Assembly: GCA_964559865.1 (NCBI GenBank)
Contig: CAZLJD010000025.1
Location: 771-64,770 of the forward strand
Direction: 5' to 3'
DNA from: an uncultured Synergistota bacterium
Lineage (GTDB): Bacteria; Synergistota; JAGHAJ01
DNA: 64,000 bases
Part shown: piece after piece, positions 3,341 to 62,172 of the stretch
Layout of the letters: each line of letters starts with the position of its first letter
Position numbering within the stretch: position 1 is the first letter of the stretch
Position numbers and translations under genes: made by a program
Notes under the pieces: generated by a model
Told to the model about the DNA's origin: nothing
Databases searched by the model: none
The model's input: the letters and a program-made list of their open reading frames with translations, nothing else

Positions 3341-3351
3341 GGGAGTTTCAG

Positions 3352-4251: not shown

Positions 4252-4260
4252 TTCATCGAC

Positions 4261-4938: not shown

Positions 4939-4939
4939 G

Positions 4940-5995: not shown

Positions 5996-6009
5996 AGGGG
6001 GGAAAAGGT

Positions 6010-8100: not shown

Positions 8101-8127
8101 TAAATTCTTGAAGGGAGAGAGTGGAAG

Positions 8128-9233: not shown

Positions 9234-9236
9234 ATA

Positions 9237-9635: not shown

Positions 9636-9645
9636 GTGATGTGAG

Positions 9646-10674: not shown

Positions 10675-10695
10675 TATGGTAGGAGAAGATTTTTC

Positions 10696-11487: not shown

Positions 11488-11502
11488 AATGGGGGTAGAT
11501 AA

Positions 11503-36241: not shown

Positions 36242-36273
36242 AGTTACCTCCTTTTGCTTCTGTGTTGTTGGGC

Positions 36274-36302
36274 ATTTTATCACCTGTTTGAGGTTTTGTC
36301 AA
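36274..36302 (-). promoter_or_regulatory. Sigma-70 promoter of the ankyrin gene
   Basis: TTGACA-17 bp-TAAAAT on the minus strand. Confidence 0.75.
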
Positions 36303-44444: not shown

Positions 44445-44999
44445 TTGATATACGAGGCCATAGTTACTACAAAAATGAAGGAGAGGTTTAATATAGCACC
44501 AATGGGTGTAGAGTTTACTGCCGATGGCATGGTTGTTATATCTCCTTATACTACCTCTCACACTTATGTCAATCTCTTGCGAACGGGTGTGGCAGTGGTT
44601 AATTTTGTGGATAATGTTGAGATATTTGCACATGCTGTTGTTACAGATGAAGTTTTCCCTTGGTTTCCTGCAGCTACAGTAGATGGTTGGGTTTTAGAAG
44701 ATGCGTATATGTATCTCGAAGTTGGCGTAAAGATGGCAAGATTAGGTATGGAGAGGAGTAGTTTTTTTTGTGAGGTATTTTGTGATGTTAAGAAGAGGTA
44801 TCCCCGTATGTTCAATAGAGCGCAAGCATTGGTAGTAGAGGCTGCTATTCTTATCAGTAGGTTGAGTATGTATTCGAGGGAAGATATATTGAAATTTTTT
44901 AGGGAGAATGAGAGAGTGGTGTTTAAGACGGGTAGCTTGGTGGAAAGAAGGGCGTGGAAATATCTTAAGAGATTTCTGGAGGAAGGTGAAAGGGTGTGA
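44445..44999 (+). CDS. DUF447 family protein (methanopterin-cluster associated)
   Basis: IYEAIVTT...NIAPMGV, NRAQALVVEAAILISRL. Confidence 0.82.
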   Translation: MIYEAIVTTKMKERFNIAPMGVEFTADGMVVISPYTTSHTYVNLLRTGVAVVNFVDNVEIFAHAVVTDEVFPWFPAATVDGWVLEDAYMYLEVGVKMARLGMERSSFFCEVFCDVKKRYPRMFNRAQALVVEAAILISRLSMYSREDILKFFRENERVVFKTGSLVERRAWKYLKRFLEEGERV

Positions 45000-45940
45000 G
45001 GATAATTACGCCTTCGAGACTGCATTTTGGTTTCATTGACCCTGTGGGAAAGAGCGGAAGGATCTACGGCAGTATGGGTGTTGCTTTAAAGTATCCTGCT
45101 TGGGACCTTAGGTTTTCCCGTGCCGATCGTTTTGTGGTTGATCACCGTGATGATGAGGTTCGTAGGAAGGTTTTAGAAGTAGCAGATAGAGTAAAGGAGA
45201 TTTATGATGTGGATGTTAATCTGAGAGTAGAGATTGCATCAATGATACCTTTGCATAAGGGATTTGGCGCTGGTACACAGTTATCCTTGGCAATTGGTGA
45301 AGGTATGTTGAGGATACTTGGTTTACCTTGTGAAAGAGAGGATATCGTGAAGGTTAGCGGTAGAGGAAAGAGGTCAGGGGTAGGCATAGCTTCATACTTT
45401 GATGGGGGATTTAATTTGGATGTTGGCAGAAAGAGAGATGGTGAAGGTTTGCCATTGTCGGTTTTCCACTTTGGTTTCCCGAGAGATTGGGTGTTTTTAG
45501 TAGTGTTGCCCTCCCTGGATCTGAATATACACGGAGGTGTGGAAGATTCAAAGATAGTGCAGGTTGATGGTATGGGTGTAGAGGAAATCTGTATGCTTGT
45601 TCTTATGAAGCTGATTCCCTCTTTAATAGAGAGAGATATAGCCCTTTTTGGAGAATCGGTGACATTGATTCAGAGACTGGTTGGGAGAATGTTTTCGAAG
45701 CCTCAGGGAGGGGTATTTGCGCACCCTGTATGTGAAATGCTTATAGATTTCATGCTTCAAAGCGGTGCGTTTGGTGCAGGACAGAGTTCGTGGGGGCCCG
45801 TTGTGTATGGTTTGGTTAAGAGACAGGATGCCCTTGGTTTAAAGCGGAGGGTTGAGGAGCATTTACGTGCAGAGGATATTGCCGGAGATGTCTGGGTTGT
45901 TGAGGTTGACAATTATGGAAGAAAATTGGTAGGTGAGTAG
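44996..45940 (+). CDS. mptG: Beta-ribofuranosylaminobenzene 5'-phosphate synthase (GHMP superfamily), first step of methanopterin synthesis
   Basis: TPSRLHFG, HKGFGAGTQL, GRGKRSGVG, FDGGF, GQSSWGP. Confidence 0.9.
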   Translation: MRIITPSRLHFGFIDPVGKSGRIYGSMGVALKYPAWDLRFSRADRFVVDHRDDEVRRKVLEVADRVKEIYDVDVNLRVEIASMIPLHKGFGAGTQLSLAIGEGMLRILGLPCEREDIVKVSGRGKRSGVGIASYFDGGFNLDVGRKRDGEGLPLSVFHFGFPRDWVFLVVLPSLDLNIHGGVEDSKIVQVDGMGVEEICMLVLMKLIPSLIERDIALFGESVTLIQRLVGRMFSKPQGGVFAHPVCEMLIDFMLQSGAFGAGQSSWGPVVYGLVKRQDALGLKRRVEEHLRAEDIAGDVWVVEVDNYGRKLVGE

Positions 45941-47159
45941 TATGAGGATAACAGAAGAGATTGCTAAAGATGTGATTGATAGGATGTGCCCTGTTATAGG
46001 TAGGGATATAAGTATCACCGATGACAGGGGCATTGTGGTTGGTAGTAGCGATCCACAATGGGTTGGTAAGAGTTACAAAGAGGCTATTGCTACTATCCGT
46101 GAGGGCAAGGTGGTAGAGGTTGATACTGAAGACGGTGTTGGTGGAACTAACTTCCCGATATTCCTGGATGGCAAGGTTATTGGGGTGCTATGGATAACGG
46201 GCAGAGGCAGACATATAAGGGATATAGGAAGGATCACATCGGTTACGATAGAACTACTCTTACACAGGCGATTTATAGAGACTATTGGAAGTTTAAAAAC
46301 GCATGCCATGAGTAGCTTTGTTGGAAGTCTGTTGAAAAAGGATAGCCTTGACTGGGAAGATATAGCCTCTTACTTGAGTGTATTAGGGTATGATCCTTCT
46401 TTACCCAGATTTGCTGTTGCCCTTGGGATACCTAAGTATGGGACTGTAATAGGTAGTGCTATAGGTGTTATGCAGAAGAGTGTATCTGGTGGTATGGTAA
46501 GGTATGATGTTAGGGAGAAGGTCTTATCTACCTGCAAGAAGGTTCCTCAAATTGGTGAGCAGGATATAGTGACTGACATAAGTGGAGGGTTGTTTGCTAT
46601 CTTTAAGGTTGGAAGTACATGTGACTCTGAAGAGGAGGCAGAGAATAGAAAGATAGAGTGGAGTTTTGAACTCTCTTCTGTGTTAAAAGACGAGATAAAC
46701 GAAGATGTCTTTTTGGGTATAGGTCCTTGTGCACACTCCATTTCAATGCTGAAGAAGTCCTTTAGAGAGGCAGTTCGGGCACTGGAAGTAGGTGTTCTGC
46801 TCTCTGAGTTTGCTGGGAAAAAAGTTTTCTTCTATGATGAGCCGATAGTGCTTTTGGGAAACCTTATAAGGAGTTCTGGTGGAGATGAGAGGCGCAACTT
46901 TGCTTCTCATGTGCTTGGAAATATAGACCAGAGTAGGATGAGAAAGGAGATACTGCATACATTGAAGACCTATCTCAGTTGCGGGATGAATGCTTCTTCT
47001 GCTGCCAAGAAGCTCTTCATACACAAAAACACTCTGCTGTACAGGTTGGAACGTGTAAAAAATCTTACCAGCCTCGATCCACACGATCCAATAGATGCAT
47101 TTTATCTCTGGTTGGCCCTTCAAGTGGTCTCTGTTGATGGTGTGCTCCACGCACAATAA
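45933..47159 (+). CDS. CdaR/PucR family transcriptional regulator
   Basis: N-terminal sugar-diacid-recognition-like domain, central GGDEF-like domain, C-terminal HTH AAKKLFIHKNTLLYRLERV. Confidence 0.9.
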   Translation: MSSMRITEEIAKDVIDRMCPVIGRDISITDDRGIVVGSSDPQWVGKSYKEAIATIREGKVVEVDTEDGVGGTNFPIFLDGKVIGVLWITGRGRHIRDIGRITSVTIELLLHRRFIETIGSLKTHAMSSFVGSLLKKDSLDWEDIASYLSVLGYDPSLPRFAVALGIPKYGTVIGSAIGVMQKSVSGGMVRYDVREKVLSTCKKVPQIGEQDIVTDISGGLFAIFKVGSTCDSEEEAENRKIEWSFELSSVLKDEINEDVFLGIGPCAHSISMLKKSFREAVRALEVGVLLSEFAGKKVFFYDEPIVLLGNLIRSSGGDERRNFASHVLGNIDQSRMRKEILHTLKTYLSCGMNASSAAKKLFIHKNTLLYRLERVKNLTSLDPHDPIDAFYLWLALQVVSVDGVLHAQ

Positions 47160-47217
47160 GATTTAGATATTTTTGTATTGTGGCACAATTGATTTTGTGT
47201 GCTCCTTATGTTATCCT
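47141..47217 (+). promoter_or_regulatory. Promoter with clustered TGTG/CACAA operator-like motifs
   Basis: TTGATT(47189)-17 bp-TATCCT(47212) with TGn. Palindrome ATTGTGGCACAAT at 47177-47189 abuts the -35; TGTGCTCCACGCACAA at 47141. Confidence 0.55.
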
Positions 47218-47416
47218 CTTTGTGAAAAATAGCGTAGCTCTGTCTCTCTTAGCCTTCTTGAATTTGTCTGTAGTGGCTTTATAGCTTTGATGTTATAGTT
47301 CTTTGTGTAGGGAGGTGGTATTTCGGTAATTGGTTGTGTGCACAAGTAGTATAGTGCTACTTTTGTATCGGATAGTATTATTTTGAGGTGAGGAATTCTG
47401 GAGAGAAGGAGGGGTT

Positions 47417-49198
47417 TTGATGGAGAAGGAGATAATGGCTGCTGTTATGGCAGCGACGGCGGAGCCAGATTATATGACCAATGATAGGTTGGAGGCACTG
47501 GTAAAGGGACACGGTATGTTGAATTTAGCCACCATTGCGGCTGCGAATGTTATAACGGAAGAGATCCTTAGAGGGTTGGATTATAAGCTTAGTGATGCTA
47601 GCGTTTCTGAACTTCCCGTGGAGGATATAATGAAGAAGGCAATAGCTACAGCTAAGCTTGCTGGTGCTGATGGTGCTAATGCTGCTTTGATTGTGGCTTC
47701 TTTGATGTATATAGCAGGTACAGACGCGAGGGCGGGTGTCCCTGCGGGTAATAGGAAGATAGGTGCATTGGCGAGAATGATAGCGGGTGCAGATAGGGCA
47801 GGAGTAGCTGCAATACCTACACCGAAGCTCTCAAATAGAGTGTCGGGCTTTGCTGCTGTTAAGGCGCTTTATGAGGCAATGGAGGACGGTAGGCTTACCA
47901 GTATAGTTGGTAAGAAATTGCCTCCATTCCTTGCGGGTGGAGCTATTTATGGACATAATGTTTTGGGAGAAGATATTGTATTTCCGGAAATAGCAACTAA
48001 TGGTGCAAAGATAGCAACAGAGGCCATGATGAATGCTTATAGTGGTGCAGGCTTGCTGCCAAGTCCGTTTATATCCGCAGTGTTGGGTGCTGCTGCTACA
48101 ATGGAAATAGTTCACTCTGATGGTTTTATAGATGAAAAGTTAGGTGAATTCTTTATTGATACTACTTCTTATCTTGCTGGTAAATCTGCGGCTGAGACTG
48201 CTGGTCTGCCTGAGAAGATGAAGATAAGAGGAACGGATAGGGAGTTTGATACAGCGCACCTCATAGGAGATCTTGCGCTTTTGTTTAAGGATATAGGTGC
48301 ACCTACAGTTGTAGGTATGATGTCATTTAATGAGATTATGGCTGCCTTTGATAATGCGATATTCTATGGTGCAGGTTTCTCTGGGGGTCCAGTTAACCCA
48401 CCGTTGGGTCATGTGACATGTGACGCAGTTGTGGCGATGTGCTTGCTTATAGATAATAAGGGTGATATTGAGGCAGCAGCTGAAGTTATCAGAAAGATCA
48501 AGCAAGAGCAGTGGTTTGACCCTGAGATGGCAACGATCTCAGTGAATACGGTGGCAAGGAAGACGGAGCAGATTAAGAGAGGTCTTGTAACAGATACTCT
48601 GATATTTGCAAGTGAACCTACAAGGACTGCGGGCGTTGCAAAAAGGGCAGAAAGGGCTTATCAGATGCTCAAAGAGGGCAAACCGCTTGAGGAAGTTTCC
48701 AAAACCTTCGATGCAGAGAGGCAGGCGTTCGTCGAGAAGAAGGCTTCCGAGCTCTTGAGTGCTGTTATGGGTAAGAAGATAGAGATAAAGTTCTTGAAAC
48801 TTGCTGGTGCTGCAAGGAGAAGCCACCCGTTTGTAAAGCAATATTGGGGGTTCGATTCTGATATCGATATAGAGGTTAAGATAGATGGTAAGCCTTATAA
48901 GATAGAAGGACTTTCCCACAAGGCTTCTCCAGCCATTGCCAGAGGCGAGCTTTCTGAGGATTGGGCATTACCGATAGGTATTGCGGCTGGTGTAGCTCAG
49001 GAGTTACAGTACTCTGGCCACACCATAATAAATGTAACCATACCTGCTGCAGTTGCGGCTGCTATGGGTAAACATAATTGGAAGGATGCAGGTAAGCTGG
49101 CAGAAAACGGTGCTTACATTACTGGCGCTATTCCTGGTGCAAAGGATACCGCGCGTAAAGTTGCTAAGTTAGCTGCTGAAATTATGAAGGCTATGTGA
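47417..49198 (+). CDS. Uncharacterised 593-aa Ala/Gly-rich helical protein; candidate enzyme
   Basis: Long clean ORF with AAGGAGG RBS, own promoter and terminator; no family motif that I recognise. Confidence 0.9.
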   Translation: MMEKEIMAAVMAATAEPDYMTNDRLEALVKGHGMLNLATIAAANVITEEILRGLDYKLSDASVSELPVEDIMKKAIATAKLAGADGANAALIVASLMYIAGTDARAGVPAGNRKIGALARMIAGADRAGVAAIPTPKLSNRVSGFAAVKALYEAMEDGRLTSIVGKKLPPFLAGGAIYGHNVLGEDIVFPEIATNGAKIATEAMMNAYSGAGLLPSPFISAVLGAAATMEIVHSDGFIDEKLGEFFIDTTSYLAGKSAAETAGLPEKMKIRGTDREFDTAHLIGDLALLFKDIGAPTVVGMMSFNEIMAAFDNAIFYGAGFSGGPVNPPLGHVTCDAVVAMCLLIDNKGDIEAAAEVIRKIKQEQWFDPEMATISVNTVARKTEQIKRGLVTDTLIFASEPTRTAGVAKRAERAYQMLKEGKPLEEVSKTFDAERQAFVEKKASELLSAVMGKKIEIKFLKLAGAARRSHPFVKQYWGFDSDIDIEVKIDGKPYKIEGLSHKASPAIARGELSEDWALPIGIAAGVAQELQYSGHTIINVTIPAAVAAAMGKHNWKDAGKLAENGAYITGAIPGAKDTARKVAKLAAEIMKAM

Positions 49199-49206
49199 CT
49201 ACTTTG

Positions 49207-49243
49207 CAGGTAGGGGGTGTTTTCGCTCCCTACCTGTTTGTTT
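49207..49243 (+). terminator. Intrinsic terminator / stabilising hairpin after the 593-aa gene
   Basis: CAGGTAGGGGGTG-TTTT-CGCTCCCTACCTG followed by TTTGTTT. Confidence 0.8.
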
Positions 49244-49256
49244 GGGGGATTAGTAG

Positions 49257-49745
49257 ATGCTTCTTATGTTGAATCTGGACGATATTGAGGTGGAATTACT
49301 CCCTCTCCACATACAGAAACTCCTCCAGAAAGGTGCAAAAAATACCTACTATGTTCATTCTGTAAATAAGAAGGGAAGAAATGGGATACTCCTTTTTGTT
49401 GATGTGGAAGAAGATTGTGCAGATGCTGTTATTGAGTATCTTGCAGTTGAGGTGGGTACGATAGGGATAAGGATAATTGAGACGAAGCATATTCCTTTTG
49501 ACTATGAGGTGAGGAAAGTAATTTTAACAGTAGGTGATAGAACATTTGGGCTATCTGTGAAGTTTATCTATAGAGGAAGAGGTAAACATGTGAAGGTAGA
49601 GTATGAGGATTTGAGGCAGGTTTCAGAGTCACTCTTTATCCCGGCAGAGGTACTCAAGAAAATAGTAGAAGGCTTTTCTTTTTCAGACGATAGGGTGTGG
49701 GACATTAGCTTAGGTGAATTGAGTCTGCACCTTGAGAAGGAGTGA
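49257..49745 (+). CDS. Stand-alone, divergent LarC C-terminal (LarC2-like) domain protein
   Basis: Aligns by eye with the LarC C-terminus in this window: NLDD/DVDD, NKKGRNG/MKKNRTG, EVGTIGIR/ETTTFGVR, VEYED/PEYES. Confidence 0.78.
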   Translation: MLLMLNLDDIEVELLPLHIQKLLQKGAKNTYYVHSVNKKGRNGILLFVDVEEDCADAVIEYLAVEVGTIGIRIIETKHIPFDYEVRKVILTVGDRTFGLSVKFIYRGRGKHVKVEYEDLRQVSESLFIPAEVLKKIVEGFSFSDDRVWDISLGELSLHLEKE

Positions 49746-49754
49746 ATATAAGAG

Positions 49755-49862
49755 ATGCATGGAGGTTCGTGGTTGCTGTCGCTTTACATCTTGGAGCAGA
49801 TAGGTTTTTGGTTAGCTGTTATCTTTTTTGTTAGGAGTAGGAGGAGAAGGGAGCAAAAGTGA
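49755..49862 (+). CDS. 35-aa single-TM putative symporter accessory peptide (not in ORF track)
   Basis: MHGGSWLLSLYILEQIGFWLAVIFFVRSRRRREQK*. TGA overlaps the symporter GTG. Confidence 0.6.
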   Translation: MHGGSWLLSLYILEQIGFWLAVIFFVRSRRRREQK

Positions 49863-51223
49863 TAGCTGTTACTGTATATCTCGGTTTTCTGTCCCTTATA
49901 GGTTTATGGAGACTTAAGAAACAGCAGACATTTGAAAATTTCTTCCTTTCTACGCAGAAGCTTGGCATGCTTGAAACATCTCTCACCTTGATGTCAACTT
50001 GGGTTGATTCTGCTATAATACTGGGTTTTAGTGGCTATTGCTACATGTTTGGCTACGATACGTTGTGGATAGCTATACCAACCTCTGTCGGTGTTTACAC
50101 CTTCTCCCTGTTCTTTGCTGCGAAAGTCAACAGGATAAGAAGAGGTTTTACGATTGGTGGTGTTATAGAGGAGGCATATGGAACGGGTGTATCTGTGGTT
50201 TCATCTCTATTCACGCTGTTGTATAGCATAACGCTAGTAGCAACGAATGTAATGGCTGCAGGGTATGTAATGCAAGTTATGGTAGGTGTGCCGTTTGTCG
50301 TGGGAGCTTTCCTGATTCTTGGAGTTGCAGTATTATATACGGTGGTAGGTGGGTTTAAAAAGGTTGTGGAGACTGACATAGCGCAGTTTTTCCTCTTGAT
50401 AGTGGGGTTGGGTGTGCTACTTTTGTTTGTATTGAAAGCTGTTGGGGGATTTGGTCATATCCAGAGAATGGCCTTTCGTTACCCAACAGCGTTTTCCGTA
50501 GGTGATGTGGCATCATTCTTTATAGTATTTACTTTCCCTTTTTGGGCAAATCCATCTTTTTATCAGAGATGTAATGCAGCAAAGTCACCTGATGTAGCGG
50601 TTGTTGGGGTTGCTACCGTTGGTTTGGTGGATTCTGTGATGACATTTGTGGCTCTGATCGTTGGGATTGCTGGAGTGATAATATTGGGGAGGGATGTAAT
50701 CCCTGATGCGGTCTTTCCTGGGGTAGTAAAGGCTGTTTTGCCTTGGGGGTTGAGAGACTTTGTAGGTTTGGCAATCCTGTCTGCTATAATGTCAACTGCG
50801 GATAGCTACCTGCTCATTGCTGGAGGGGTGATTGCTCATGATATATTGAAACCCATTAAGAGAGAAGTGATTGATGAACTTGTATATACAAGGGTTGGCA
50901 TAGTGCTTTCTGCAGCTGTTGCGTTGTTTGCAGCTATGATCTTCAAAAACATATTGGATGCTGCGATGTTTGCATTTTCCCTATTTGTTTCAAGCAATCT
51001 TATCCCACTTGTAGTGGCATTCTATGTAAAAGATGCGAAGCGTTTTGTTGCACCTTCGCTTGTTAGTATGTTAGGTGGCGGCTTAACGGTTGTGTTGTGG
51101 AAGATTTTTGATTGGGGTGATGTTTCCCTTTCCGTGATGTATGGACTTTTGGTATCCGGTATCTTGTGGTTACTATTGTACGGTTACAAAAGGGTTGTAA
51201 AGGGGCGTAGGTTGTATGGATAA
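49859..51223 (+). CDS. Sodium:solute symporter (SSS family)
   Basis: About 13 TMs, YTVVGGFKKVVETDIAQ, FYQR, SAIMSTADS. Confidence 0.92.
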   Translation: MIAVTVYLGFLSLIGLWRLKKQQTFENFFLSTQKLGMLETSLTLMSTWVDSAIILGFSGYCYMFGYDTLWIAIPTSVGVYTFSLFFAAKVNRIRRGFTIGGVIEEAYGTGVSVVSSLFTLLYSITLVATNVMAAGYVMQVMVGVPFVVGAFLILGVAVLYTVVGGFKKVVETDIAQFFLLIVGLGVLLLFVLKAVGGFGHIQRMAFRYPTAFSVGDVASFFIVFTFPFWANPSFYQRCNAAKSPDVAVVGVATVGLVDSVMTFVALIVGIAGVIILGRDVIPDAVFPGVVKAVLPWGLRDFVGLAILSAIMSTADSYLLIAGGVIAHDILKPIKREVIDELVYTRVGIVLSAAVALFAAMIFKNILDAAMFAFSLFVSSNLIPLVVAFYVKDAKRFVAPSLVSMLGGGLTVVLWKIFDWGDVSLSVMYGLLVSGILWLLLYGYKRVVKGRRLYG

Positions 51224-52004
51224 GAGGGTTTTAGAAGAGTTGTTGGAGGACTTTTCTGAAGGAAAGGTCTCAAAAGAAGATGTTTTGAAGGTATTTGAGA
51301 GTCTTCCTTATATGGATTTAGGGTTTGCACGGTTGGATACACACAGGCCATTCAGACGAGGATTGGATGAAGTAGTGTTTTGTAAAGGGAAGGCAAAGGA
51401 GCATGTAAAAGGCATTGCGAAGGCACTTTCTACTTCCACTGGTAATGTGGTTTTTACGCATGTTAACGAGGATATGTTTAGGGTTATTCAAGATGAAATT
51501 CCTGACATTGTGTATTACAAGGAGGCACTGATAGCAGCCTCTGTTAGGAGAAATGTTGATAAACCGAGAAAGGGTATAACGGTGGTTACTGCAGGCACTT
51601 CGGATATTAGGGTTGCGGAGGAGGCAGCTGTCATTGCTGAGATTTTGGGCAATGAGGTTGTTAGAATATACGATGTTGGTGTTGCCGGGATACATAGATT
51701 GTTTCCACACCTTGATACCTTGAGAAATTCGAATGTGGTTGTGACTGTTGCGGGTATGGAGGGCGCTTTAGTTACTGTAGTGGCTGGATTGATATCTTCT
51801 CCTGTCATAGCTGTTCCCACGAGCGTTGGCTATGGTGCAAACTTTAATGGACTTTCTTCTCTGCTTGCAATGTTGAATGCCTGTGTACCTGGTATAGGGG
51901 TGGTTAATATAGATAATGGTTTTGGTGCTGGGGTGTTGGCTCACATGATAAACAGTCTTGCGTACAGGGGTGATAGAAATAAAGATAGCGATACCAACCG
52001 ATGA
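51216..52004 (+). CDS. larB: Nickel-pincer cofactor biosynthesis protein LarB
   Basis: RLDTHR, TAGTSD, AEEA, DVGVAGIHRL, AGMEGAL, PTSVGYG, VNIDNGFGA. Confidence 0.93.
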   Translation: MDKRVLEELLEDFSEGKVSKEDVLKVFESLPYMDLGFARLDTHRPFRRGLDEVVFCKGKAKEHVKGIAKALSTSTGNVVFTHVNEDMFRVIQDEIPDIVYYKEALIAASVRRNVDKPRKGITVVTAGTSDIRVAEEAAVIAEILGNEVVRIYDVGVAGIHRLFPHLDTLRNSNVVVTVAGMEGALVTVVAGLISSPVIAVPTSVGYGANFNGLSSLLAMLNACVPGIGVVNIDNGFGAGVLAHMINSLAYRGDRNKDSDTNR

Positions 52005-52326
52005 TGGGGAGAAGGTATGCTCCAAGATGTTTGGTATGGCTGCATTTTATCTCATTTACGAATGTGATAGTGGAAAACTAAAGCTAATTGAAAAAAAGGT
52101 CAACCCCTATGCGAAGGAGATGCCAAGAGGAAAGACCTTTTATGTAATAGAGGTGCTCCGTGATTGTGATGTCTATGTGGTTTCTAGTATAGGAGCAAGG
52201 GGGAGAAGGAGGGTTTTGGAGAAGGGGATAACTATCTATGATGTTGAAAAAGGAATAGATATAAGTATAGTGCTGAAACGTATAGAGCTGGAGCTTTGTG
52301 GTGGACATGCTGTTGGTAGGGTATAG
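51970..52326 (+). CDS. NifB/NifX family cofactor-binding protein (start approximate)
   Basis: KIAIPTDDG...FGMAAFYLIY, DCDVYVVSSIGARG. Confidence 0.78.
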   Translation: MIEIKIAIPTDDGEKVCSKMFGMAAFYLIYECDSGKLKLIEKKVNPYAKEMPRGKTFYVIEVLRDCDVYVVSSIGARGRRRVLEKGITIYDVEKGIDISIVLKRIELELCGGHAVGRV

Positions 52327-53386
52327 CGTGAGGGCTCTGGCAGAATCTGTTGTTAAATACAGCTTTAGAGATGTGGTTGCCGTTGACTTTTTTGGGGATT
52401 GGGATTTGCGACATATTGTGGATAATGTTGAGGTCGTGGAAAGCAGGGAGCATTTGTCTACTATATTGGAAAGATATGCTAAACATGATGTAATCTATTC
52501 CTCCGTGTTGGAAAACGATGTAGTACTCCTTAACCTCTTGGGGGATAGGGTCATCGGTAACGGTGCAGAGGTGGTGGAAATAGTTAGGCCTGGCGAGAAG
52601 TGGTGGAATATTGCAGGGAGACTCCGTATAAGGATACCTAATGTTTTAACTGGGATGCTACCGTGTTGTTCGGGAAGGTGGTTGAAAAAACCTTATAAGA
52701 GTGGTGGTGGAAGAAGTATCTCTTTTTGGAGTGGCGAGAAGTTACCAGCTGGTTTTTATCTTCAAGAGTTTATAGATGGGGAGAGTTTTTCGTTTTTGTT
52801 TGTGAGTAATGGTAAAGATTTGATGCTTTTGGGTGTCACCCTTCAACTTGTTGGAGTGGACTTCCTTGGGGCTCACAGGTTTGCGTGGAGTGGAAATGTG
52901 TATCCAGCTAACCTTGAGCCTGACATCGTTGATGAAGTAAAAGAGTGGATTGCAAGGCTAACTTGTGAGGTAGGGCTTTGTGGTGTGTTTGGTGTAGATG
53001 TGATCGTGAAAGATAGCATCCCTTATGTTATAGAGATAAATCCAAGGTATACCGGTAGCATGGAGCTAATAGAGACTGCGTTGGGAATCAATATCTTTGG
53101 TCTCCACATGGGAGCGTGTAGAGGAAACCTTCCTCTTAATATTCCAGAGCCTTTGGCGTATTTCGGGAAAGGGATAGTTTATGCGGAAGTAGAACTCTGT
53201 GGTTTCAGAAGTGAAGAGATGTGGAATAGGGGTTTTAGAGATATACCGGTAGGTGAAAGCGTTATCCATAAGGGAAGCCCTGTTTGTTCTGTCTTTTCTT
53301 CAGGAGGGAGCATAGGAGAGGTAATAGATGGACTTATTGAGCAGAAGAGATGGTTGTATGAGAAGGGAGTGAGAACTTGTGTATAG
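52298..53386 (+). CDS. ATP-grasp carboligase of H4MPT/methanofuran clusters (COG2232-like)
   Basis: SVRALAES, VDFFGDWDL, KPYKSGGG, QEFIDG, EINPRYTGS. Confidence 0.8.
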   Translation: MVDMLLVGYSVRALAESVVKYSFRDVVAVDFFGDWDLRHIVDNVEVVESREHLSTILERYAKHDVIYSSVLENDVVLLNLLGDRVIGNGAEVVEIVRPGEKWWNIAGRLRIRIPNVLTGMLPCCSGRWLKKPYKSGGGRSISFWSGEKLPAGFYLQEFIDGESFSFLFVSNGKDLMLLGVTLQLVGVDFLGAHRFAWSGNVYPANLEPDIVDEVKEWIARLTCEVGLCGVFGVDVIVKDSIPYVIEINPRYTGSMELIETALGINIFGLHMGACRGNLPLNIPEPLAYFGKGIVYAEVELCGFRSEEMWNRGFRDIPVGESVIHKGSPVCSVFSSGGSIGEVIDGLIEQKRWLYEKGVRTCV

Positions 53387-53753
53387 GCTGATTACTGGTA
53401 GAACTGCAAAACAAGGTGTGGCTCTTCATGTGGGTAAGACCACAAGGCAGTATCAGGAATCGGTTGCTGTTGCCTATTTTAACGAAGAGGATATGCGGAG
53501 AAATGGGATAGCCGAGGGGGGGGCTGTTTTGCTGAGAAGCAAGTTTGGTAGAGTAGTAGTCAGGGCACATAAAGGGAGTGTCCCTAAGGGGATGGTATTT
53601 ATGCCTTACGGTCCTTGGGCAAACCTTTTGACATCTGCTGATACCAATGGGATAGGAATGCCAGATTTGAAGGGTGTAGAAGTTGATGCAACTTCCTCTA
53701 ATGAAGAAATCTGGGATTGGGAACGGGTGCTGAAAGAGGTGAATAGTCAATGA
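53379..53753 (+). CDS. fwdD: Formylmethanofuran dehydrogenase subunit D (molybdopterin dinucleotide-binding)
   Basis: LITGRT..QG, VFMPYGPWAN, GMPDLKG. Confidence 0.9.
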   Translation: MYRLITGRTAKQGVALHVGKTTRQYQESVAVAYFNEEDMRRNGIAEGGAVLLRSKFGRVVVRAHKGSVPKGMVFMPYGPWANLLTSADTNGIGMPDLKGVEVDATSSNEEIWDWERVLKEVNSQ

Positions 53754-55027
53754 GGATACAAAATGTCGTTTGCCCCTTCTGTGGTTGCCTATGTGATGAT
53801 ATAGAAGTGGAAATAGAAAGCGGAAAGGTAGTTAATGTTAAAAAGGCTTGTGGAGTGGGGAGGGCATTGTTTCTTAATCACGAAGAGGACCTTGCTGAAC
53901 CTTTAATGTATGGAAGTGTCGCTTCTATAGAGGATGTTGTGACAGAGGCTGTAAGAGTGGTATCTTCTGCTAAGCATCTTCTTATATATGGGCTTAGCTC
54001 TACATCTATAGAAGCACAAAGAATGGCGATAAGATTGGCGGAATTGGTTGGTGGCAGTATAGATCAGACATCTTCTGTTTGTCACGGACCTACGACTATG
54101 GCAATTCAACAGTCTGGGATTCCTACCTGCACGCTGGGAGAGGCAAAGAACAGGGCAGATGTTGTAGTCTTTTGGGGTTCAAATCCTTTGGAGTCCCATC
54201 AGAGGCATTATGAGAGGTACTCACTGTTTGCAAAGGGTATGTTTGTGCCAGACGGTAGGAAGGGCAGAAAACTTGTAGTTATTGATGTAAGGGATACAGT
54301 TTCTTCTAAGCTGGCAAATCTGTTTGTTCGTGTAGAGTATGGGAGTGATTATGAAGTCCTTACTGCGTTGAGGATGTTGCTCAAGGGGGTAAAACCTTCA
54401 AAAGAATGTGTAGGTGGCGTTTGTATAGATGAATTACAGAAGCTGTTAGATGTGATGCTGTCGGCGAAGTATGGTGTGATATTCTTTGGCATGGGATTGA
54501 CGATGACTGGAGGGAAGTATCACAATATAGAGGCGGCCATATCTCTTGTAAGAGAGTTAAACGCTCATGCAAGGTGGTCAATAGAAGCTATGAGGGGACA
54601 TTATAATGTCAAGGGGGCTGGGAGTGTTTTGGCTTGGCAGACGGGCTTTCCCTTTGCGGTGAATTTCTCTTTGGGATACCCGAGATATATGCCGGGTGAG
54701 TTTTCTGCTGTTGATCTACTTAGGAGGAGGGAGATAGACGCTATGCTGGTTATAGCCTCTGATCCTGTTGCTACATTTCCAAGGTCTGCTGTGAAAACAA
54801 TGATGGAGATCCCACTAATATCTATAGACCCAAAGCAAAGCTTAACAACGAAGGTAGCTGATGTCGTTATACCGACGGCGCAGGTTGGAATTGCAGCGGA
54901 AGGGACGGCTTATCGTATGGATGGTGTCCCTCTGAGGCTGAAAAAGATAGTAGATTCTCCTTTTCCTTCAGACGAGGAGGTCATTTCCTCCATAATAAGA
55001 GGAGTGAAGAAGGTGAAATATCAATGA
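53750..55027 (+). CDS. fwdB: Formylmethanofuran dehydrogenase subunit B (Mo/W-pterin)
   Basis: CPFCGCLCDD...C Fe-S motif, SVCHGP, MRGHYNV. Confidence 0.93.
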   Translation: MRIQNVVCPFCGCLCDDIEVEIESGKVVNVKKACGVGRALFLNHEEDLAEPLMYGSVASIEDVVTEAVRVVSSAKHLLIYGLSSTSIEAQRMAIRLAELVGGSIDQTSSVCHGPTTMAIQQSGIPTCTLGEAKNRADVVVFWGSNPLESHQRHYERYSLFAKGMFVPDGRKGRKLVVIDVRDTVSSKLANLFVRVEYGSDYEVLTALRMLLKGVKPSKECVGGVCIDELQKLLDVMLSAKYGVIFFGMGLTMTGGKYHNIEAAISLVRELNAHARWSIEAMRGHYNVKGAGSVLAWQTGFPFAVNFSLGYPRYMPGEFSAVDLLRRREIDAMLVIASDPVATFPRSAVKTMMEIPLISIDPKQSLTTKVADVVIPTAQVGIAAEGTAYRMDGVPLRLKKIVDSPFPSDEEVISSIIRGVKKVKYQ

Positions 55028-56655
55028 GTAGATTTGTTATAAGAAATGGTAAGATTTACGATCCTGCGAATAATGTGCATGGTGATGTGAGAGACATTTT
55101 TGTTGATAATGGGAAGATTGTTGATGCTATGGATATGGATGGCGTAGAGGTTGTAGACGCAGATGGTATGATAGTAGCCCCTGGTAATGTGGAGATACAT
55201 AGCCATATAGCAGGTCCCAAGCTTACTATAGGCAGGCTCTTGAGACCAGAAGATCATATAAGAGATGTCGTAAAAAGCGAGTATCCATTGAGATCCGGCG
55301 TTGGTTTTTCTATTCCTACTACTTTTATTACTGCTTACAGATACCTTACATTGGGATATACCACACTTATGGAGGCAGCTGTTCCACCACTGGAAGCAAG
55401 ACACACCCTTGATGAGTTAGAAGACATGCCAGTAGTTGACAAAGGTATGTATATCCTTATGGGCAATAACAACATACTGTTTTCTCTACTTAAGGAGAAA
55501 GAGTATGATATGGCAAGAGACTTTGTTGGTTGGTTATTGAAGGCCACGGGTGGTTATGCTATCAAGGTGGTCAACCCAGGTGGTACAGATAGCTGGAAGT
55601 GGGGCAAGATATTTAACTCCTTGAGAGACGAAACAGTATGGGGAATAAGACCTATTGATGTCCTTAAGCTTTTGGTTGAGAGTGTGGAATACTTTCACCT
55701 TCCGCATCCTGTTCACCTTCATACATATAATCTTGGTTCCCCCGGTAGTTATAATGCAGCTTTAGATACTATCCATGCTCTTGGGGATTATTCCTTGCAT
55801 CTTACCCATTTGCAGTATTATTGCTATGGGGGTGATAGTTGGTCCACATTTAGATCTGAGGCTGAAGAAGTTGCTGCTGAATTGAGAGATCACCCTAAGA
55901 TCACTGCAGATATGGGTCAAGTTCTGTTTGAAGATACGACTACTATGACGGCAGATACGCCGTGGCAATACAAGTTACACATGCTCACTGGTAATAGATG
56001 GGTTAGCACAGATGTTGAGGTCGAGGCGGGCTCGGGTATAGTTCCTTATAGATATAAGAGGAGTAGTATAGTTAATGCGGTTCAGTGGGCTACGGGTTTG
56101 GAACTTGCTTTGATGCTTAGCCCTTGGCAGATATTTCTGACAACAGATAGCCCGAATGGTGGACCGTTTTTTATGTACCCAGAGGTTATAAGGTGGCTAA
56201 CCAGTGAGGATGCAAGACAGGATGTGATAAGCTCGCTACCTTCCTCCTTTAAGAGAAGGACTATATTGGGAGATATCCACAGAGAGTTGTCATTAGAGGA
56301 GATAATAGTCATGATGAGTTCAGGTCCTGCTAAGGCTTTAGGTCTCAAGAATAGGGGGCACCTGGGTATTGGAGCAGATGCTGACATAGCAATATACAAA
56401 GAGAGGGGTAGTGTAGCTGATACGCTGTCCCGTGTTCATATGCTGTTTAAAAGCGGGGAGTTAGTTGTGGACGATGGAAAGATAGTTTCGGGGGAACTGG
56501 TGGGCAAACTCTTTGTTGTGGATACCGGGGTAGATGATGAGGTGTTGGGTGATAAAGTGGCAAGAATGTTCGATGAGTTCTATTCCGTTAGCTTTTCTAA
56601 CTATAGGGTAGAAGATGTGTATCTCAGGAATAGGGAGGTAGTCTGCTGTGGATAG
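55024..56655 (+). CDS. fwdA: Formylmethanofuran dehydrogenase subunit A (amidohydrolase)
   Basis: IHSHIAG, KVVNPGG, HPVHLH, TTDSPNGGPF. Confidence 0.94.
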   Translation: MSRFVIRNGKIYDPANNVHGDVRDIFVDNGKIVDAMDMDGVEVVDADGMIVAPGNVEIHSHIAGPKLTIGRLLRPEDHIRDVVKSEYPLRSGVGFSIPTTFITAYRYLTLGYTTLMEAAVPPLEARHTLDELEDMPVVDKGMYILMGNNNILFSLLKEKEYDMARDFVGWLLKATGGYAIKVVNPGGTDSWKWGKIFNSLRDETVWGIRPIDVLKLLVESVEYFHLPHPVHLHTYNLGSPGSYNAALDTIHALGDYSLHLTHLQYYCYGGDSWSTFRSEAEEVAAELRDHPKITADMGQVLFEDTTTMTADTPWQYKLHMLTGNRWVSTDVEVEAGSGIVPYRYKRSSIVNAVQWATGLELALMLSPWQIFLTTDSPNGGPFFMYPEVIRWLTSEDARQDVISSLPSSFKRRTILGDIHRELSLEEIIVMMSSGPAKALGLKNRGHLGIGADADIAIYKERGSVADTLSRVHMLFKSGELVVDDGKIVSGELVGKLFVVDTGVDDEVLGDKVARMFDEFYSVSFSNYRVEDVYLRNREVVCCG

Positions 56656-57532
56656 TATGGTAACCATGGTTGAAGATACATTTGCAGAGGCATTCAAAAT
56701 GTACGGTGTTCGTCTGATAATTACGGCTATTAACAGAGAGTGGGTTATGCACGCAGCAAGGTGTGTGACAGGATTCGCTACATCGGTTATAGGTTGTGGG
56801 TGTGAAGCTGGCATAGAAGGTGATGTGGAAGACGCTCCTGATGGCAGGGTAGGAGTAAGTGTACTCATCTTTTCGATGACCAAAGACTCCCTTGAGAAAC
56901 AGCTTTTGAACAGGATAGGACAGTGCGTTTTGACATGTCCCACTGCATCCTGCTTTAATGGGCTTGACTGTGATGAGATGCTTCCTGTTGGAAAGAAGTT
57001 AAGGTACTTTGGTGACGGGTTTCAAATGAGCAAGTTTATAAATGGTAGAAGGTTCTGGAGGATCCCCATTATGGAAGGAGAGGCATTAATAGAGGAGAGT
57101 TATGGTGTGGCTGAAGCGGTAGGGGGTGGAAATATACTCATTTTGGCAGACTCTGTTGAACATGCGCTATATGCCAGTGAGAAAGCAGTTTCTTCGGCTA
57201 ATGTGGTGAAGGGTGTAATAATGCCTTTCCCGGGAGGTGTCGTGAGGAGTGGCAGTAAGGTGGGTTCTAAATATAAGTTTTTGCATGCCTCTACAAATAC
57301 TGCTTTTGTTCCTCAATTGCGAGCACACACTTCGAAGGATTTGCTGAGTGGTGTCAGATCTGTGTTGGAAATAGTCTTTGATGGATTATCTTTGGATGCT
57401 GTTAAGAAGGCTATGAGGTTGGCTATAGAGAATGCGGTTGGGTGTGAAGGTGTATTGGGGATAAGTGCAGGAAACTATGGCGGTAATCTTGGTAAGTATA
57501 GGATATATCTGAAAGAGGTTTTGGAGGTCTGA
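56648..57532 (+). CDS. ftr: Formylmethanofuran:H4MPT formyltransferase (Ftr/FhcD)
   Basis: EDTFAEAF, GCEAGIE, RIGQCVLTCPT, PFPGGVVRSGSKVGS, SAGNYGG. Confidence 0.96.
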   Translation: MDSMVTMVEDTFAEAFKMYGVRLIITAINREWVMHAARCVTGFATSVIGCGCEAGIEGDVEDAPDGRVGVSVLIFSMTKDSLEKQLLNRIGQCVLTCPTASCFNGLDCDEMLPVGKKLRYFGDGFQMSKFINGRRFWRIPIMEGEALIEESYGVAEAVGGGNILILADSVEHALYASEKAVSSANVVKGVIMPFPGGVVRSGSKVGSKYKFLHASTNTAFVPQLRAHTSKDLLSGVRSVLEIVFDGLSLDAVKKAMRLAIENAVGCEGVLGISAGNYGGNLGKYRIYLKEVLEV

Positions 57533-57536
57533 GAAG

Positions 57537-60965: not shown

Positions 60966-60980
60966 GGAGGGGGTGGTTGT

Positions 60981-62153
60981 TTGAAAGTGGCCTATTTGGA
61001 CTGTTCCTCAGGTGTTAGTGGAGATATGCTTTTGGGTGCCATAGTTGACGGTGGGGTGAGCATTGAGGTGTTGTTTGAGAAGCTTAAAACGCTTGGCATA
61101 GAATTTGAAATGAAGAGCAGGATTGTGTATAAGAATCATGTTAGGGCAACCAAAGTAGATGTTTCTTGGGATGAGGGACACCATCATCACAGACACTTTG
61201 GTGATATCAAGCGGATTATAGCTGATTCTTCGATTCCGAATAGTGTTAAGGAGAAATCCATTGAGATTTTTCGCACTATAGCAGAAGCAGAGGCAAAAGT
61301 TCATGGATGTTCCGTGGAAGAAGTGCACTTTCACGAGGTAGGTGCAGTAGATTCCATTGTAGATGTTGTGGGTTCTGTCTTGGGATTTGAGCTCCTTGGG
61401 GTAGAGGCGTTGTATGTGTCTGCTCTGAATGTGGGTAGTGGGAGGGTGAAGTGTGCGCATGGGGTGATGCCTGTGCCTGCACCTGCTACAAGTGAGATAC
61501 TTCAGGGATTGCCGATATATTCTGATGGCCAAGGTGAACTTGTTACTCCTACTGGTGCTGCCATTGTGAAGGTGCTGTCGAGCAAGTTTGGTAGCATACC
61601 TAATATAAAGCTTGAGAAGGTTTCTCTTGGAGCTGGCGGTAGGGATATACCTGAGTTTCCTAATGTTTTGCGGATGTTTTTGGGGGAATTGGATGCGGCT
61701 GAAGGTTACGATACGGATGAAGTAGTGATCCTTGAGACCGATGTAGATGATCTTACGCCGGAGATGGTGGGTAATCTCTATGACACGCTTCTTGATGCCG
61801 GGGCACTTGATGTAGTAGTTGTTCCGGTCTTTATGAAGAAGAACAGGACTGGTTTCAGGATTTCGGTTACGGTGGGAAATGATGCTGTGATGGAGATCCT
61901 TGGCAAACTCTTTGCTGAGACTACAACCTTTGGTGTGAGGGTTAGTAGAGTTAGAAGGTACAAACTTTTTAGAGAGGAAAGGATTGTGGAGACAAGCTGG
62001 GGTAGTGTGAAGGTGAAAGTTGGTAGTGTAGGTGATAAGGCCGTTACTGTGTCTCCTGAGTATGAATCTTGCAGAGAGGTTGCCTTGAAGAAAGGTGTGC
62101 CACTTAAGGATGTTTATAGGGAAGTTATAGGCAAGGTAGGAGAAAATATTTAG
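60981..62153 (+). CDS. larC: Nickel-pincer cofactor nickel insertase LarC (full length)
   Basis: DCSSGVSGDMLLGA, HHHHRH, HFHEVGAVDSIVD, PVPAPAT, TPTGAA, MKKNR, PEYE. Confidence 0.95.
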   Translation: MKVAYLDCSSGVSGDMLLGAIVDGGVSIEVLFEKLKTLGIEFEMKSRIVYKNHVRATKVDVSWDEGHHHHRHFGDIKRIIADSSIPNSVKEKSIEIFRTIAEAEAKVHGCSVEEVHFHEVGAVDSIVDVVGSVLGFELLGVEALYVSALNVGSGRVKCAHGVMPVPAPATSEILQGLPIYSDGQGELVTPTGAAIVKVLSSKFGSIPNIKLEKVSLGAGGRDIPEFPNVLRMFLGELDAAEGYDTDEVVILETDVDDLTPEMVGNLYDTLLDAGALDVVVVPVFMKKNRTGFRISVTVGNDAVMEILGKLFAETTTFGVRVSRVRRYKLFREERIVETSWGSVKVKVGSVGDKAVTVSPEYESCREVALKKGVPLKDVYREVIGKVGENI

Positions 62154-62172
62154 TATTAGGGGGGGATGTGTA

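Follow-up and report, generated by a model that had tools for sequence, protein, structure and literature searches.

The 64-kb stretch of DNA analysed here (the window) encodes, directly downstream of an orphan gene, a short protein that resembles only the C-terminal domain of LarC. This arrangement raises the question of what a LarC2 domain does when it stands alone, and whether it serves LarC or its orphan neighbour. We refer to the stand-alone LarC2-type protein of 162 aa as C2, and to the neighbouring orphan protein of 592/593 aa as X593.

The C2 gene (49257..49745, plus strand) is an ORF of 162 codons for amino acids with an ATG start, preceded by a GGGGGA ribosome-binding site 7–12 nt 5' of the start. 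Pfam PF01969 (Ni_insertion, DUF111) aligned with residues 2–130 of C2 over profile positions 247–371 of 375 only (E = 2.1e-20, 73.6 bits), and NCBIfam NF052512 (nickel_LarC2), which has a curated cutoff of 50 bits, matched residues 2–120 with 67.2 bits, so that C2 passes the family threshold. The best matches among PDB sequences were MK0293 of Methanopyrus kandleri (3C19, E = 7e-7) and residues 270–397 of a full-length LarC (12BI). An AF2 model of C2 (pLDDT 92.9) returned as its top Foldseek matches the LarC2 structures 6BWQ and 6BWO (TM 0.71–0.80, rmsd 2.3–2.4 Å) and 3C19, with E = 2e-8, TM 0.71/0.80 and rmsd 2.4 Å for 6BWQ_B. The predicted fold is that of LarC2, in which a ferredoxin-like N-terminal part is followed by a C-terminal protrusion, with an additional C-terminal β-hairpin (~residues 147–161). 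The initial annotation, made from the letters alone, had seen a LarC2 signature (DD, KKxRxG, ExxTxGxR, K and EYE) in a protein that lacks the His-rich N-terminal half of LarC, and both observations were borne out. Every named motif was located (D8-D9, K38-K39-G40-R41-N42-G43, E65-x-G-T68-x-G70-x-R72, K102 and E115-Y116-E117), no LarC1 match was found with Pfam or NCBIfam, and the N-terminus of C2 coincides with the LarC2 domain boundary, as it does in homologues (MLLMxNxD...). A complete LarC combines in one polypeptide LarC1 (TIGR00299), which holds a His-rich nickel site and an acidic pocket, and LarC2 (NF052512), and C2 is not one because the LarC1 domain is missing. Sequence, predicted fold and motifs thus confirm that C2 is a LarC2 domain.

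The residues that are invariant in the C-terminal domains of full-length LarC, namely D8, K38-K39-G40-R41, E65, G70, K102, E115, E117 and E138, likewise show little or no variation in the clade of C2 proteins that partner X593, within which D8, KKGR38-41, D49, E65, T68, G70, H78, K102 and E138 do not vary. Conservation in this clade is weaker at two LarC motif positions, the second Asp (53%) and R72 (67%); the C2 of the window keeps both D9 and R72. C2 therefore shares fold, family and polar motifs with the LarC2 of LarC, the CTP-dependent nickel-pincer cyclometallase (L. plantarum 6BWO/6BWQ, M. thermoacetica 12BI), but differs from it in being unfused to the LarC1 nickel-binding domain, in forming a separate clade, in having X593 instead of LarC1 as its partner, in its extra hairpin and in the clade-specific invariant residues P16, H31, T37, E43, D49 and K134. 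From these the window protein itself deviates at three positions (Y31 for H, N37 for T and G43 for E). MK0293 is also a stand-alone archaeal protein of the LarC2 fold (~180 aa), but it falls outside the X593-linked clade in a neighbour-joining (NJ) tree and is without the clade-invariant E65, H78 and D49; no functional literature on it was found, only its use as a protein-design scaffold.

X593 (47420..49198, plus strand; ORF from 47417) ends 58 bp before C2, in a different frame. Since its homologues begin MEKEI, translation probably starts from the ATG at 47420. Between the X593 stop and the C2 start lies an intercistronic stem-loop with a 14-bp stem (49206..49237, plus strand), a terminator-like scan match with an RNA MFE of -28.3 kcal/mol (z -4.26), the stem of which is kept at loci L004 and L006 through compensatory changes. 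Directly 5' of X593 is a CdaR/PucR-family regulator (45933..47159, plus strand; Pfam Diacid_rec, GGDEF_2 and HTH_30) with a dN/dS of 0.020, as low as that of X593; it is a lineage-specific neighbour present only in the window and at L004–L006, with the same synteny at L004 and L005. C2 is followed by a sodium:solute symporter (49859..51223, plus strand; Pfam SSF, TIGR00813), also lineage-specific (synteny at L004–L006), which overlaps the start of larB by 8 bp. LarB, the pyridinium-3,5-biscarboxylic acid mononucleotide synthase (51216..52004, plus strand), scored 275 bits against NCBIfam NF033503 (cutoff 175 bits). Next comes a small NifX-like protein with a Nitro_FeMo-Co domain (51958..52326, plus strand; Pfam PF02579) and an uncertain start codon, whose orthologue at L004 has 92 aa; related genes recur beside X593-C2 in Methanobacteriaceae. 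The complete larC said to lie 11 kb away is indeed present: a full-length LarC of 390 aa with both domains (60981..62153, plus strand; Pfam Ni_insertion 473 bits, NCBIfam LarC1 222 bits and LarC2 142 bits) is encoded 11.2 kb downstream of C2, among genes of the H4MPT/methanofuran pathway. LarE is absent from the 64-kb window. Matches to the window sequence came solely from DNA metagenomes of hydrothermal vents, with no transcript match.

In Pfam and NCBIfam, X593 found no match at E < 0.01, LarA (PF09861) and AKR (PF00248) included; it had no match among PDB sequences and no fold neighbour in the PDB by Foldseek (best E 0.028, TM < 0.2). By sequence or fold, it belongs neither to the LarA superfamily nor to the NphT-type AKRs. 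The weak top matches that Foldseek did return include transporters. The AF2 model (pLDDT 84, pTM 0.86) predicts a soluble, mostly α-helical protein with a small β domain (~455–496), and comparison of four segments with hhalign found no internal duplication. A profile search of 1.84e9 representatives gave 228 matches and about 15 full-length clusters at 50% identity, and recovered no remote homologues outside the family; at ~55% identity, there are at least 684 homologues. The dN/dS of X593 was 0.022, and its invariant Lys and His residues include K114, H180, K198, K291 and H332; E185, D186 and D292 do not vary either. A role as a substitute for the sulfur insertase LarE is unlikely, given that both conserved Cys residues and an Fe-S motif are absent from X593, and we rejected a membrane protein as no 19-residue window reaches KD 1.6 (GRAVY 0.10) and there is no transmembrane segment. 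Searches of the literature on MK0293, on LarB/LarC and methanopterin, and on recent nickel-pincer work turned up no account of X593 or of the X593-C2 pair.

The initial annotation had proposed that C2 is a dedicated paralogue, to be checked by whether it always neighbours the 593-aa family. Among 75 species-representative genomes with at least 500 bp of readable flank downstream of X593, drawn from Archaea and Bacteria, the C2 gene touches the X593 gene in 72 and lies within 2 kb in 74; the sole informative locus without C2 is L061. At 70 of the 75 loci, a C2-only ORF follows X593 on the same strand within 400 bp, frequently with a gap of 4–60 bp or a 4-bp overlap. C2 is also adjacent to X593 at L065, and at L085 it is directly upstream. 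Reciprocal look-up from the C2 side recovered X593 in 3/3 cases. Methanogens of three orders carry the pair, as do Chloroflexota, Actinomycetota, Synergistota, Desulfobacterota and Firmicutes; complete genomes with both genes include those of Desulfoscipio (CP156660), Sporomusa acidovorans (NZ_CP155571), Methanosarcina (NZ_CP195119 and NZ_CP195120), Methanolobus (NZ_CP146980) and Acetomicrobium. A divergent X593 of 610 aa, which lies in an unrelated context where further Lar genes are missing, still has C2 beside it. Pairwise distances among X593 proteins are correlated with those among C2 proteins (r = 0.84, Mantel p = 0.001). Among the 1.84e9 representatives, X593 and C2 were never seen fused, the longest member of the X593 family having 627 aa. 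C2 is thus nearly universally adjacent to X593 and is inherited together with it.

C2 also has a history distinct from that of LarC. As it is only 27% identical to the LarC2 domain of LarC from its own genome, it is not a recent LarC copy, and in the NJ tree, the phylogenetic comparison that the initial annotation had called for, the X593-linked C2 proteins form their own clade apart from the LarC C-terminal domains. At least 261 proteins make up the C2 family, and all 120 among the matches listed have 155–206 aa. Against its nearest relative, C2 has a dN/dS of 0.14–0.15, similar to the neighbouring MptG, ATP-grasp and FhcD genes; it is a real gene under purifying selection. It is less conserved than X593, both in identity to the nearest relative (67% versus 95%) and in mean p-distance (0.59 versus 0.41). 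With its adjacency, reciprocal recovery, own clade, purifying selection and persistence in a divergent branch, C2 has held up as a paralogue dedicated to the 593-aa family; the roles that the initial annotation had suggested for it, namely nucleotidylation, delivery of the cofactor or that of a small subunit, are candidate functions.

We searched six-frame translations of 80 X593 loci with HMMs for other Lar genes. LarB occurs within a 10-kb radius of X593 at 28 loci, full LarC at 16 and a LarC1-only gene at 10 (26/80 together), while LarE was found at three (L036, L059 and L085). About half of the X593 loci have no Lar gene besides C2 within 10 kb. The LarC1-only genes, with examples in Desulfoscipio and Sporomusa, cover HMM positions 1–236 and reach 225 bits against NCBIfam LarC1 with no LarC2 match, so that the stand-alone C2 may be the sole LarC2 available at these ten bacterial loci. 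The description of C2 as an extra LarC2 hence holds for the window, with its complete LarC, but is lineage-specific. At L059 the gene order is larE-larB-larC1-X593-C2, in which X593 takes the place of larA in a classical lar operon. X593 thus has the genomic linkage to larB, larC and larE that would be expected of a nickel-pincer-dependent protein, together with a private LarC2; NphT was discovered through a signature of this kind (PMC13524815). Bacterial X593-C2 pairs are often found inside H4MPT/methanofuran C1 gene islands. We discarded the idea that LarB and LarC are the 'orf21/orf22' of methylotroph H4MPT islands, as homology ties Orf21 and Orf22 to MfnE and MfnB (PMC8141765). In some Methanosarcinales an AKR-ferredoxin gene is present in the same cluster as X593-C2, and could itself encode a pincer user.

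In LarC, LarC2 is the CTP site at which P2TMN is CMPylated to P2TCD (PMC13510736). The explanation that we favour, with about even chances of being correct, is that C2 is a functional, anciently diverged CTP-binding module of the LarC2 type and an obligate partner of X593, for which it CMP-activates a pincer nucleotide. Like LarC2, C2 would form a trimer or hexamer that binds CTP at its subunit interfaces. With CTP it would activate a pyridinium pincer mononucleotide, in the way that LarC2 activates P2TMN. The activated nucleotide would then pass from C2 to X593, which would be a new, non-LarA and non-AKR user or processor of the nickel-pincer cofactor or of a CMP-linked dinucleotide form. At loci whose LarC consists of LarC1 alone, C2 probably acts in trans for LarC1 as well. 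CTP binding and CMPylation by C2, its contact with X593 and the use of a nickel-pincer by X593 are all steps that we infer from sequence, predicted structure and gene order. In about 15% of genomes larBCE are present but larA is not, and users other than LarA have by now been identified (PMC11796402, PMC13524815). In contrast to the known nickel-pincer users (the LarA superfamily, NphT-type aldo-keto reductases and an NPAD-dependent ornithine cyclodeaminase), X593 has no LarA or AKR match and no fold neighbour in the PDB, and for none of them was a private LarC2 paralogue reported in the nickel-pincer literature examined. Going further, X593 might represent a structurally new class of nickel-pincer enzyme, its fold being absent from the PDB, with its own LarC2-derived CMP-transferase and a cytidine-dinucleotide or C2-delivered cofactor, active in hydride transfer linked to the H4MPT/methanofuran C1 metabolism of methanogens and anaerobic bacteria; we regard this as unlikely. 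In weighing the favoured explanation, we counted against it the lack of a fusion, the rarity of LarE (3/80) and the roughly half of loci without other Lar genes within 10 kb, as well as the relaxed second Asp and R72, the deviations of the window C2 from its clade and the AKR-ferredoxin gene of Methanosarcinales.

C2 could instead supply in trans the LarC2 half of a split LarC for general cofactor biosynthesis, its adjacency to X593 reflecting a shared operon only. This possibility is suggested by the ten LarC1-only bacterial loci, which show no LarC2 other than the one linked to X593, by the common LarC2 motif residues kept in C2, and by Lactiplantibacillus plantarum, which likewise has larC1 and larC2 as separate ORFs; there the two are contiguous and become fused in translation by a programmed ribosomal frameshift (PMC13510736). 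In the window, however, the gene 5' of C2 is X593, which is read in another frame and separated from it by 58 bp that include a hairpin, and no overlapping larC1 ORF lies upstream; elsewhere, LarC1-only genes are separated from C2 by LarB and/or X593, which makes a frameshift fusion impossible. Where LarC1 is near, in the orders X593-C2-LarB-LarC1 and LarB-LarC1-X593-C2, C2 adjoins X593 and not LarC1. It is beside X593 at 16/16 Methanosarcinales loci and in the window despite a complete LarC there, and around half of the loci keep C2 next to X593 with no LarB or LarC within 10 kb, with L090 as a further case of retained adjacency. The distinct C2 clade also speaks against a split LarC, as does the finding that changing the covalent linker between LarC1 and LarC2 greatly lowers LarC activity (PMC13510736). 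We consider a split LarC improbable.

Similarly doubtful is the proposal that C2 is a non-catalytic subunit of X593, a nucleotide-sensing or structural module of the ACT/PII type that descends from LarC2 but performs no cofactor chemistry. The ferredoxin-like fold of C2 is weakly similar to AHAS regulatory subunits and PII-like proteins, but this similarity is generic (TM ~0.35). Although C2 evolves much faster than X593 and its second Asp and R72 are less conserved, as a regulatory subunit might allow, the polar residues of catalytic LarC2 (D8, KKGR, E65, K102, E115/E117 and E138) are invariant across two domains of life, as is usual where an active or ligand site has been kept. Other Lar genes are missing nearby at many loci, which would suit a regulatory role, yet LarB, LarC and LarE recurrently cluster with the pair.

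Quite unlikely, in our estimate, is that X593 and C2 form an alternative biosynthetic or modifying machine in which X593 is no end user but replaces LarC1 and acts on the CMP-activated nucleotide, perhaps inserting another metal or turning the pincer nucleotide into a variant cofactor that a different enzyme uses. The pair does mirror LarC2 and LarC1, with an activation module beside a second catalytic module (PMC13510736), and it is also conserved independently; the cofactor has dinucleotide variants, as NPAD demonstrates (cited in PMC13524815), and the bacterial pair lies among H4MPT/methanofuran cofactor-biosynthesis genes. The authors of the LarC study likened LarC2 and LarC1 to the modules of molybdenum cofactor insertion (PMC13510736). 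MogA/MoeA and Cnx1 G/E resemble X593-C2 in logic only, with a small nucleotidylating module and a metal-step module that may be separate or fused; they have no sequence or fold kinship to the pair and handle another nucleotide and cofactor, and the two-step hand-over in X593-C2 is itself putative. Replacement of LarC1 does not apply to the 26 loci where X593 stands alongside LarC1 or full LarC, X593 has no conserved Cys or His-rich patch (its only invariant His residues are H180 and H332), and its size and strong conservation (dN/dS 0.02) would equally suit a central metabolic enzyme.

Finally, C2 might be a duplicate of the 3' part of larC that has lost its function and is decaying, a reading that the initial annotation had tied to a lack of conservation beside 593-aa homologues. 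Its small size, the missing LarC1, a LarC2 score below that of the LarC from its own genome (67 versus 142 bits) and the complete larC 11 kb away would fit this idea. It is almost certainly wrong, given the intact C2 ORF with a ribosome-binding site, its low dN/dS, orthologues kept beside X593 in 74/75 genomes from two domains of life and a family of at least 261 members, of which the 120 among the matches listed have 155–206 aa.

Many prokaryotes make the nickel-pincer nucleotide without LarA, and the users in these organisms are only partly known (NphT-type AKRs and an NPAD-dependent cyclodeaminase). With C2 at its side, X593 becomes a candidate for a new protein that uses or processes the nickel-pincer cofactor. 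The candidate is a concrete one: it is compact and highly conserved, has no domain model or structural relative, and is found in methanogens and at least five bacterial phyla. The pair further indicates that the LarC2 module, which is CMP-activating in LarC, can exist and be selected alone beside LarC1-only genes. A stand-alone C2 bears on the mechanism of LarC, in particular on whether nickel insertion and CMPylation could be separated in trans.

The 162-aa protein encoded at 49257-49745 (+), here called C2, belongs to the LarC2 domain family by sequence, fold and motifs alike. C2 matched Pfam PF01969 only at profile positions 247-371 of 375 (E 2.1e-20) and, with 67.2 bits, exceeded the cutoff of 50 set for the NCBIfam LarC2 domain model. 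The nearest PDB sequences were MK0293 (3C19), an M. kandleri protein that likewise stands alone, and part of a full-length LarC (12BI, residues 270-397). Its AlphaFold2 model (pLDDT 92.9; 35 homologues as input) superposed on L. plantarum LarC2 (6BWQ/6BWO; TM 0.71-0.80, rmsd 2.3-2.4 Å) and on 3C19, and carries a C-terminal beta-hairpin that is extra to the LarC2 core. As the initial annotation had proposed, the motifs DD, KKGRxG, ExGTxGxR, K and EYE are all present and the His-rich LarC1 half is absent; both C2 and its homologues start exactly at the LarC2 domain boundary. Without LarC1, C2 is not itself a LarC. The complete larC that had been placed 11 kb away is also borne out, with a 390-aa LarC (LarC1 + LarC2) encoded at 60981-62153 (+), 11.2 kb downstream of C2.

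The genes around C2 all lie on the + strand, in the order DUF447, MptG-like GHMP kinase, CdaR/PucR regulator (45933-47159), the orphan protein X593 (593 aa; 47420-49198), C2, sodium:solute symporter, LarB (NF033503, 275 bits), NifX-like protein (51958-52326), ATP-grasp ligase, FhcD/B/A, Ftr, FhcC, Mch, MptN-like RimK ligase, CitG-like protein, full-length LarC and MtdA-like dehydrogenase. LarB and LarC are thus interleaved with H4MPT/methanofuran C1-transfer genes in this Synergistetes-like bacterium (44445-63066), and neither LarE nor LarA was found in the 64-kb window. The 58-bp gap between the X593 stop and the C2 start holds a stem-loop (49206-49237; 14-bp stem; MFE -28.3 kcal/mol, z -4.26). 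In L004 and L006, the two closest relatives, compensatory changes maintain its stem; the element could fix the ratio at which X593 and C2 are expressed, or make the upstream transcript more stable. Across the window (1-64000) almost every gene lies on one strand, GTG/TTG starts are frequent, and the coding (+) strand is very strongly skewed towards G over C. The source is a motile bacterium, closely related to a hydrothermal-sediment Synergistetes MAG, with a flagellar and chemotaxis block at 90-13092 (FlhA, FlhF, MinD-like, PilZ/YcgR, CheB, CheA, CheC, CheD, FliA, FapA); a 231-aa ankyrin-repeat protein is encoded at 35588-36283 (-).

X593 had no match in Pfam, NCBIfam or PDB sequences, and a Foldseek search of the PDB with its AlphaFold2 model (pLDDT 84, pTM 0.86), mainly alpha-helical with a small beta domain, gave no neighbour (best E 0.028, TM <0.2). 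More than 680 close homologues at ~55% identity occur across Archaea and Bacteria. When 1.84 billion representatives were searched with a profile, only 228 hits came back, comprising ~15 full-length 50%-identity clusters (587-627 aa) and fragments, with no remote relatives or fusions among them. The protein is predicted to be soluble, with no internal repeat found and no conserved Cys; its invariant residues include many Gly, Lys, His, Asp, Glu and Arg (e.g. N112-R113-K114, H180, E185-D186, K291-D292 and H332), and it appears to be an enzyme from a family not yet described. X593 is neither a LarA nor an AKR. The papers searched, dating up to October 2026, report LarA homologues, NphT-type AKRs and an NPAD-dependent cyclodeaminase as pincer users and mention neither the X593 family nor a private LarC2.

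C2 is tied to the 593-aa family almost without exception, as the initial annotation had suggested it might be. Six-frame translations of 80 species-representative genome loci were scanned with HMMs, covering archaea (Methanosarcina, Methanolobus, Methanococcoides, Methanomethylovorans, Methanohalobium, Methanobacterium, Methanobrevibacter, Methanocella) and bacteria (Anaerolineae, Thermoleophilia and other Actinomycetota, Synergistaceae, Desulfobacterota, Clostridia, Sporomusa, Halanaerobium). Among the 75 informative loci, those with at least 500 bp downstream of X593, 70 carried a C2-only ORF (LarC HMM positions ~247-375) on the same strand, no more than 400 bp downstream. C2 was likewise adjacent to X593 in L065, immediately upstream in L085, 1.9 kb upstream in L044 and ~0.8 kb downstream in L049; only L061 had none. 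In this Thermoproteota MAG, an MtdA-like gene comes immediately after X593. Reverse look-up from C2 found X593 directly upstream in 3/3 cases, one of which, on a long-read metagenome contig, has X593 split into ORFs of 340 and 252 aa before an intact C2 (L087 3977-5754), reflecting a pseudogene or else a frameshift error. At L090 4495-6833, a divergent 610-aa X593 has a 169-aa C2 upstream that overlaps it by 4 bp. The surrounding genes are of MMPL-transporter, SCP2, glycosyltransferase and epimerase type, and neither H4MPT nor further Lar genes lie near the pair; this foreign context indicates that X593-C2 travels as a unit. Pairwise distances of X593 and C2 correlate (r = 0.84, Mantel p = 0.001). 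The phylogenetic comparison with LarC2, a neighbour-joining tree with few and taxonomically narrow full-length LarCs, placed the X593-linked C2s in a single clade roughly tracking taxonomy, apart from LarC C-terminal domains and from MK0293, the closest solved stand-alone relative, of no known function. C2 is very probably a functional, dedicated partner of X593.

Other Lar genes are frequent neighbours. Within 10 kb of X593, LarB was found at 28 of the 80 loci, full LarC at 16 (all Methanosarcinales, ordered X593-C2-LarB-LarC) and LarC1-only genes at 10 bacterial loci. The bacterial orders were X593-C2-LarB-LarC1, LarB-LarC1-X593-C2 and C2-LarB-LarC1-X593; one LarC1-only protein was verified (LarC1 225 bits, no LarC2 match). 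LarE (TIGR00268, 304 bits) occurred at three loci, and in the order larE-larB-larC1-X593-C2 of L059, X593 takes the place of larA in a classical lar operon. No LarA domain was found in recurrent neighbours among annotated gene clusters; neighbour counts based on called ORFs are lower bounds where GC content is high.

According to a 2026 cryo-EM study (PMC13510736), the hexameric core of LarC is built from LarC2 and has CTP sites at its subunit interfaces; P2TMN is converted to P2TCD by CMPylation at LarC2 before LarC1 inserts nickel. Residues D8, K38-K39-G40-R41, E65, G70, H78, K102, E115, E117 and E138 are invariant or near-invariant in the X593-linked clade and invariant in sampled LarC C-domains, H78 not being general to LarC, as M. 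thermoacetica LarC and the window's own LarC have another residue. P16, H31, T37, E43, D49 and K134 are near-invariant specifically in the clade, and conservation is looser at the second Asp (53%) and at R72 (67%). The window-lineage C2 is an outlier inside this clade (28-37% identity to others; Y31, N37, G43) that nevertheless keeps the core residues.

C2 may be an autonomous, LarC2-type CTP-dependent activating module with X593 as its primary client. It would CMP-activate the pincer mononucleotide and hand it over to X593, which on this view would be a novel protein either using or processing the nickel pincer; wherever LarC has lost its LarC2 half, C2 would act in trans for LarC1 too. We infer the activation and hand-over tentatively, giving them about an even chance or a little less, and this account is the simplest that covers all architectures. 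That C2 is only the trans-acting half of a split LarC is unlikely, because C2 is retained next to a complete LarC and also at loci without Lar genes; nor is it a frameshift pair like L. plantarum larC1/larC2. A non-catalytic regulatory or structural subunit is similarly improbable, since the LarC2 polar residues are invariant in C2. It is rather doubtful that X593 and C2 form an alternative machine making or modifying the cofactor, not using it. The initial annotation's refuting case, a decaying duplicate of part of larC unlinked to 593-aa homologues, is itself refuted by a dN/dS of 0.14-0.15 versus nearest relatives L004 and L006, on par with MptG, the ATP-grasp gene, FhcD and FhcC, by only 27% identity to the LarC2 domain of the genome's own LarC, which makes C2 an ancient paralogue, by at least 261 relatives in a profile search, and by its place beside X593 nearly everywhere. 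Among the 120 matches listed, all are stand-alone (155-206 aa) and bear no annotation beyond 'DUF111 family' or 'nickel insertion protein'.

X593 and the CdaR-family regulator are far more constrained (dN/dS ~0.02 versus the nearest relative), five to eight times below surrounding genes, and this shared low dN/dS suggests a tightly coupled regulator-enzyme pair in the window lineage. Elsewhere, a 399-aa fusion of AKR and ferredoxin domains lies beside X593-C2 in Methanolobus vulcani (L001/L009 7979-9178) and between C2 and LarB at three Methanosarcina loci (L028, L041, L070), sometimes accompanied by a TetR gene. NPMN-dependent AKRs (NphT) were reportedly found recently through the same kind of adjacency; in these archaea the fusion is a possible second client of the pincer. 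NifX-like (Nitro_FeMo-Co domain) genes, often with DUF134, recur beside X593-C2 in Methanobacteriaceae; NifX-like genes near the pair (51958-52326 in the window, after LarB; L024, L035, L039, L046, L048, L050, L065, L067, L080, L088) possibly encode cofactor carriers. At least 21 of 38 bacterial loci have H4MPT/methanofuran genes in the fetched flanks, often with an MtdA-like gene directly after C2, a context that hints at a role for X593 in cofactor biosynthesis or in C1 metabolism linked to H4MPT/methanofuran. For the window's own lineage, the CdaR-type regulator, as constrained as X593, and the solute symporter hint at an imported carboxylate.
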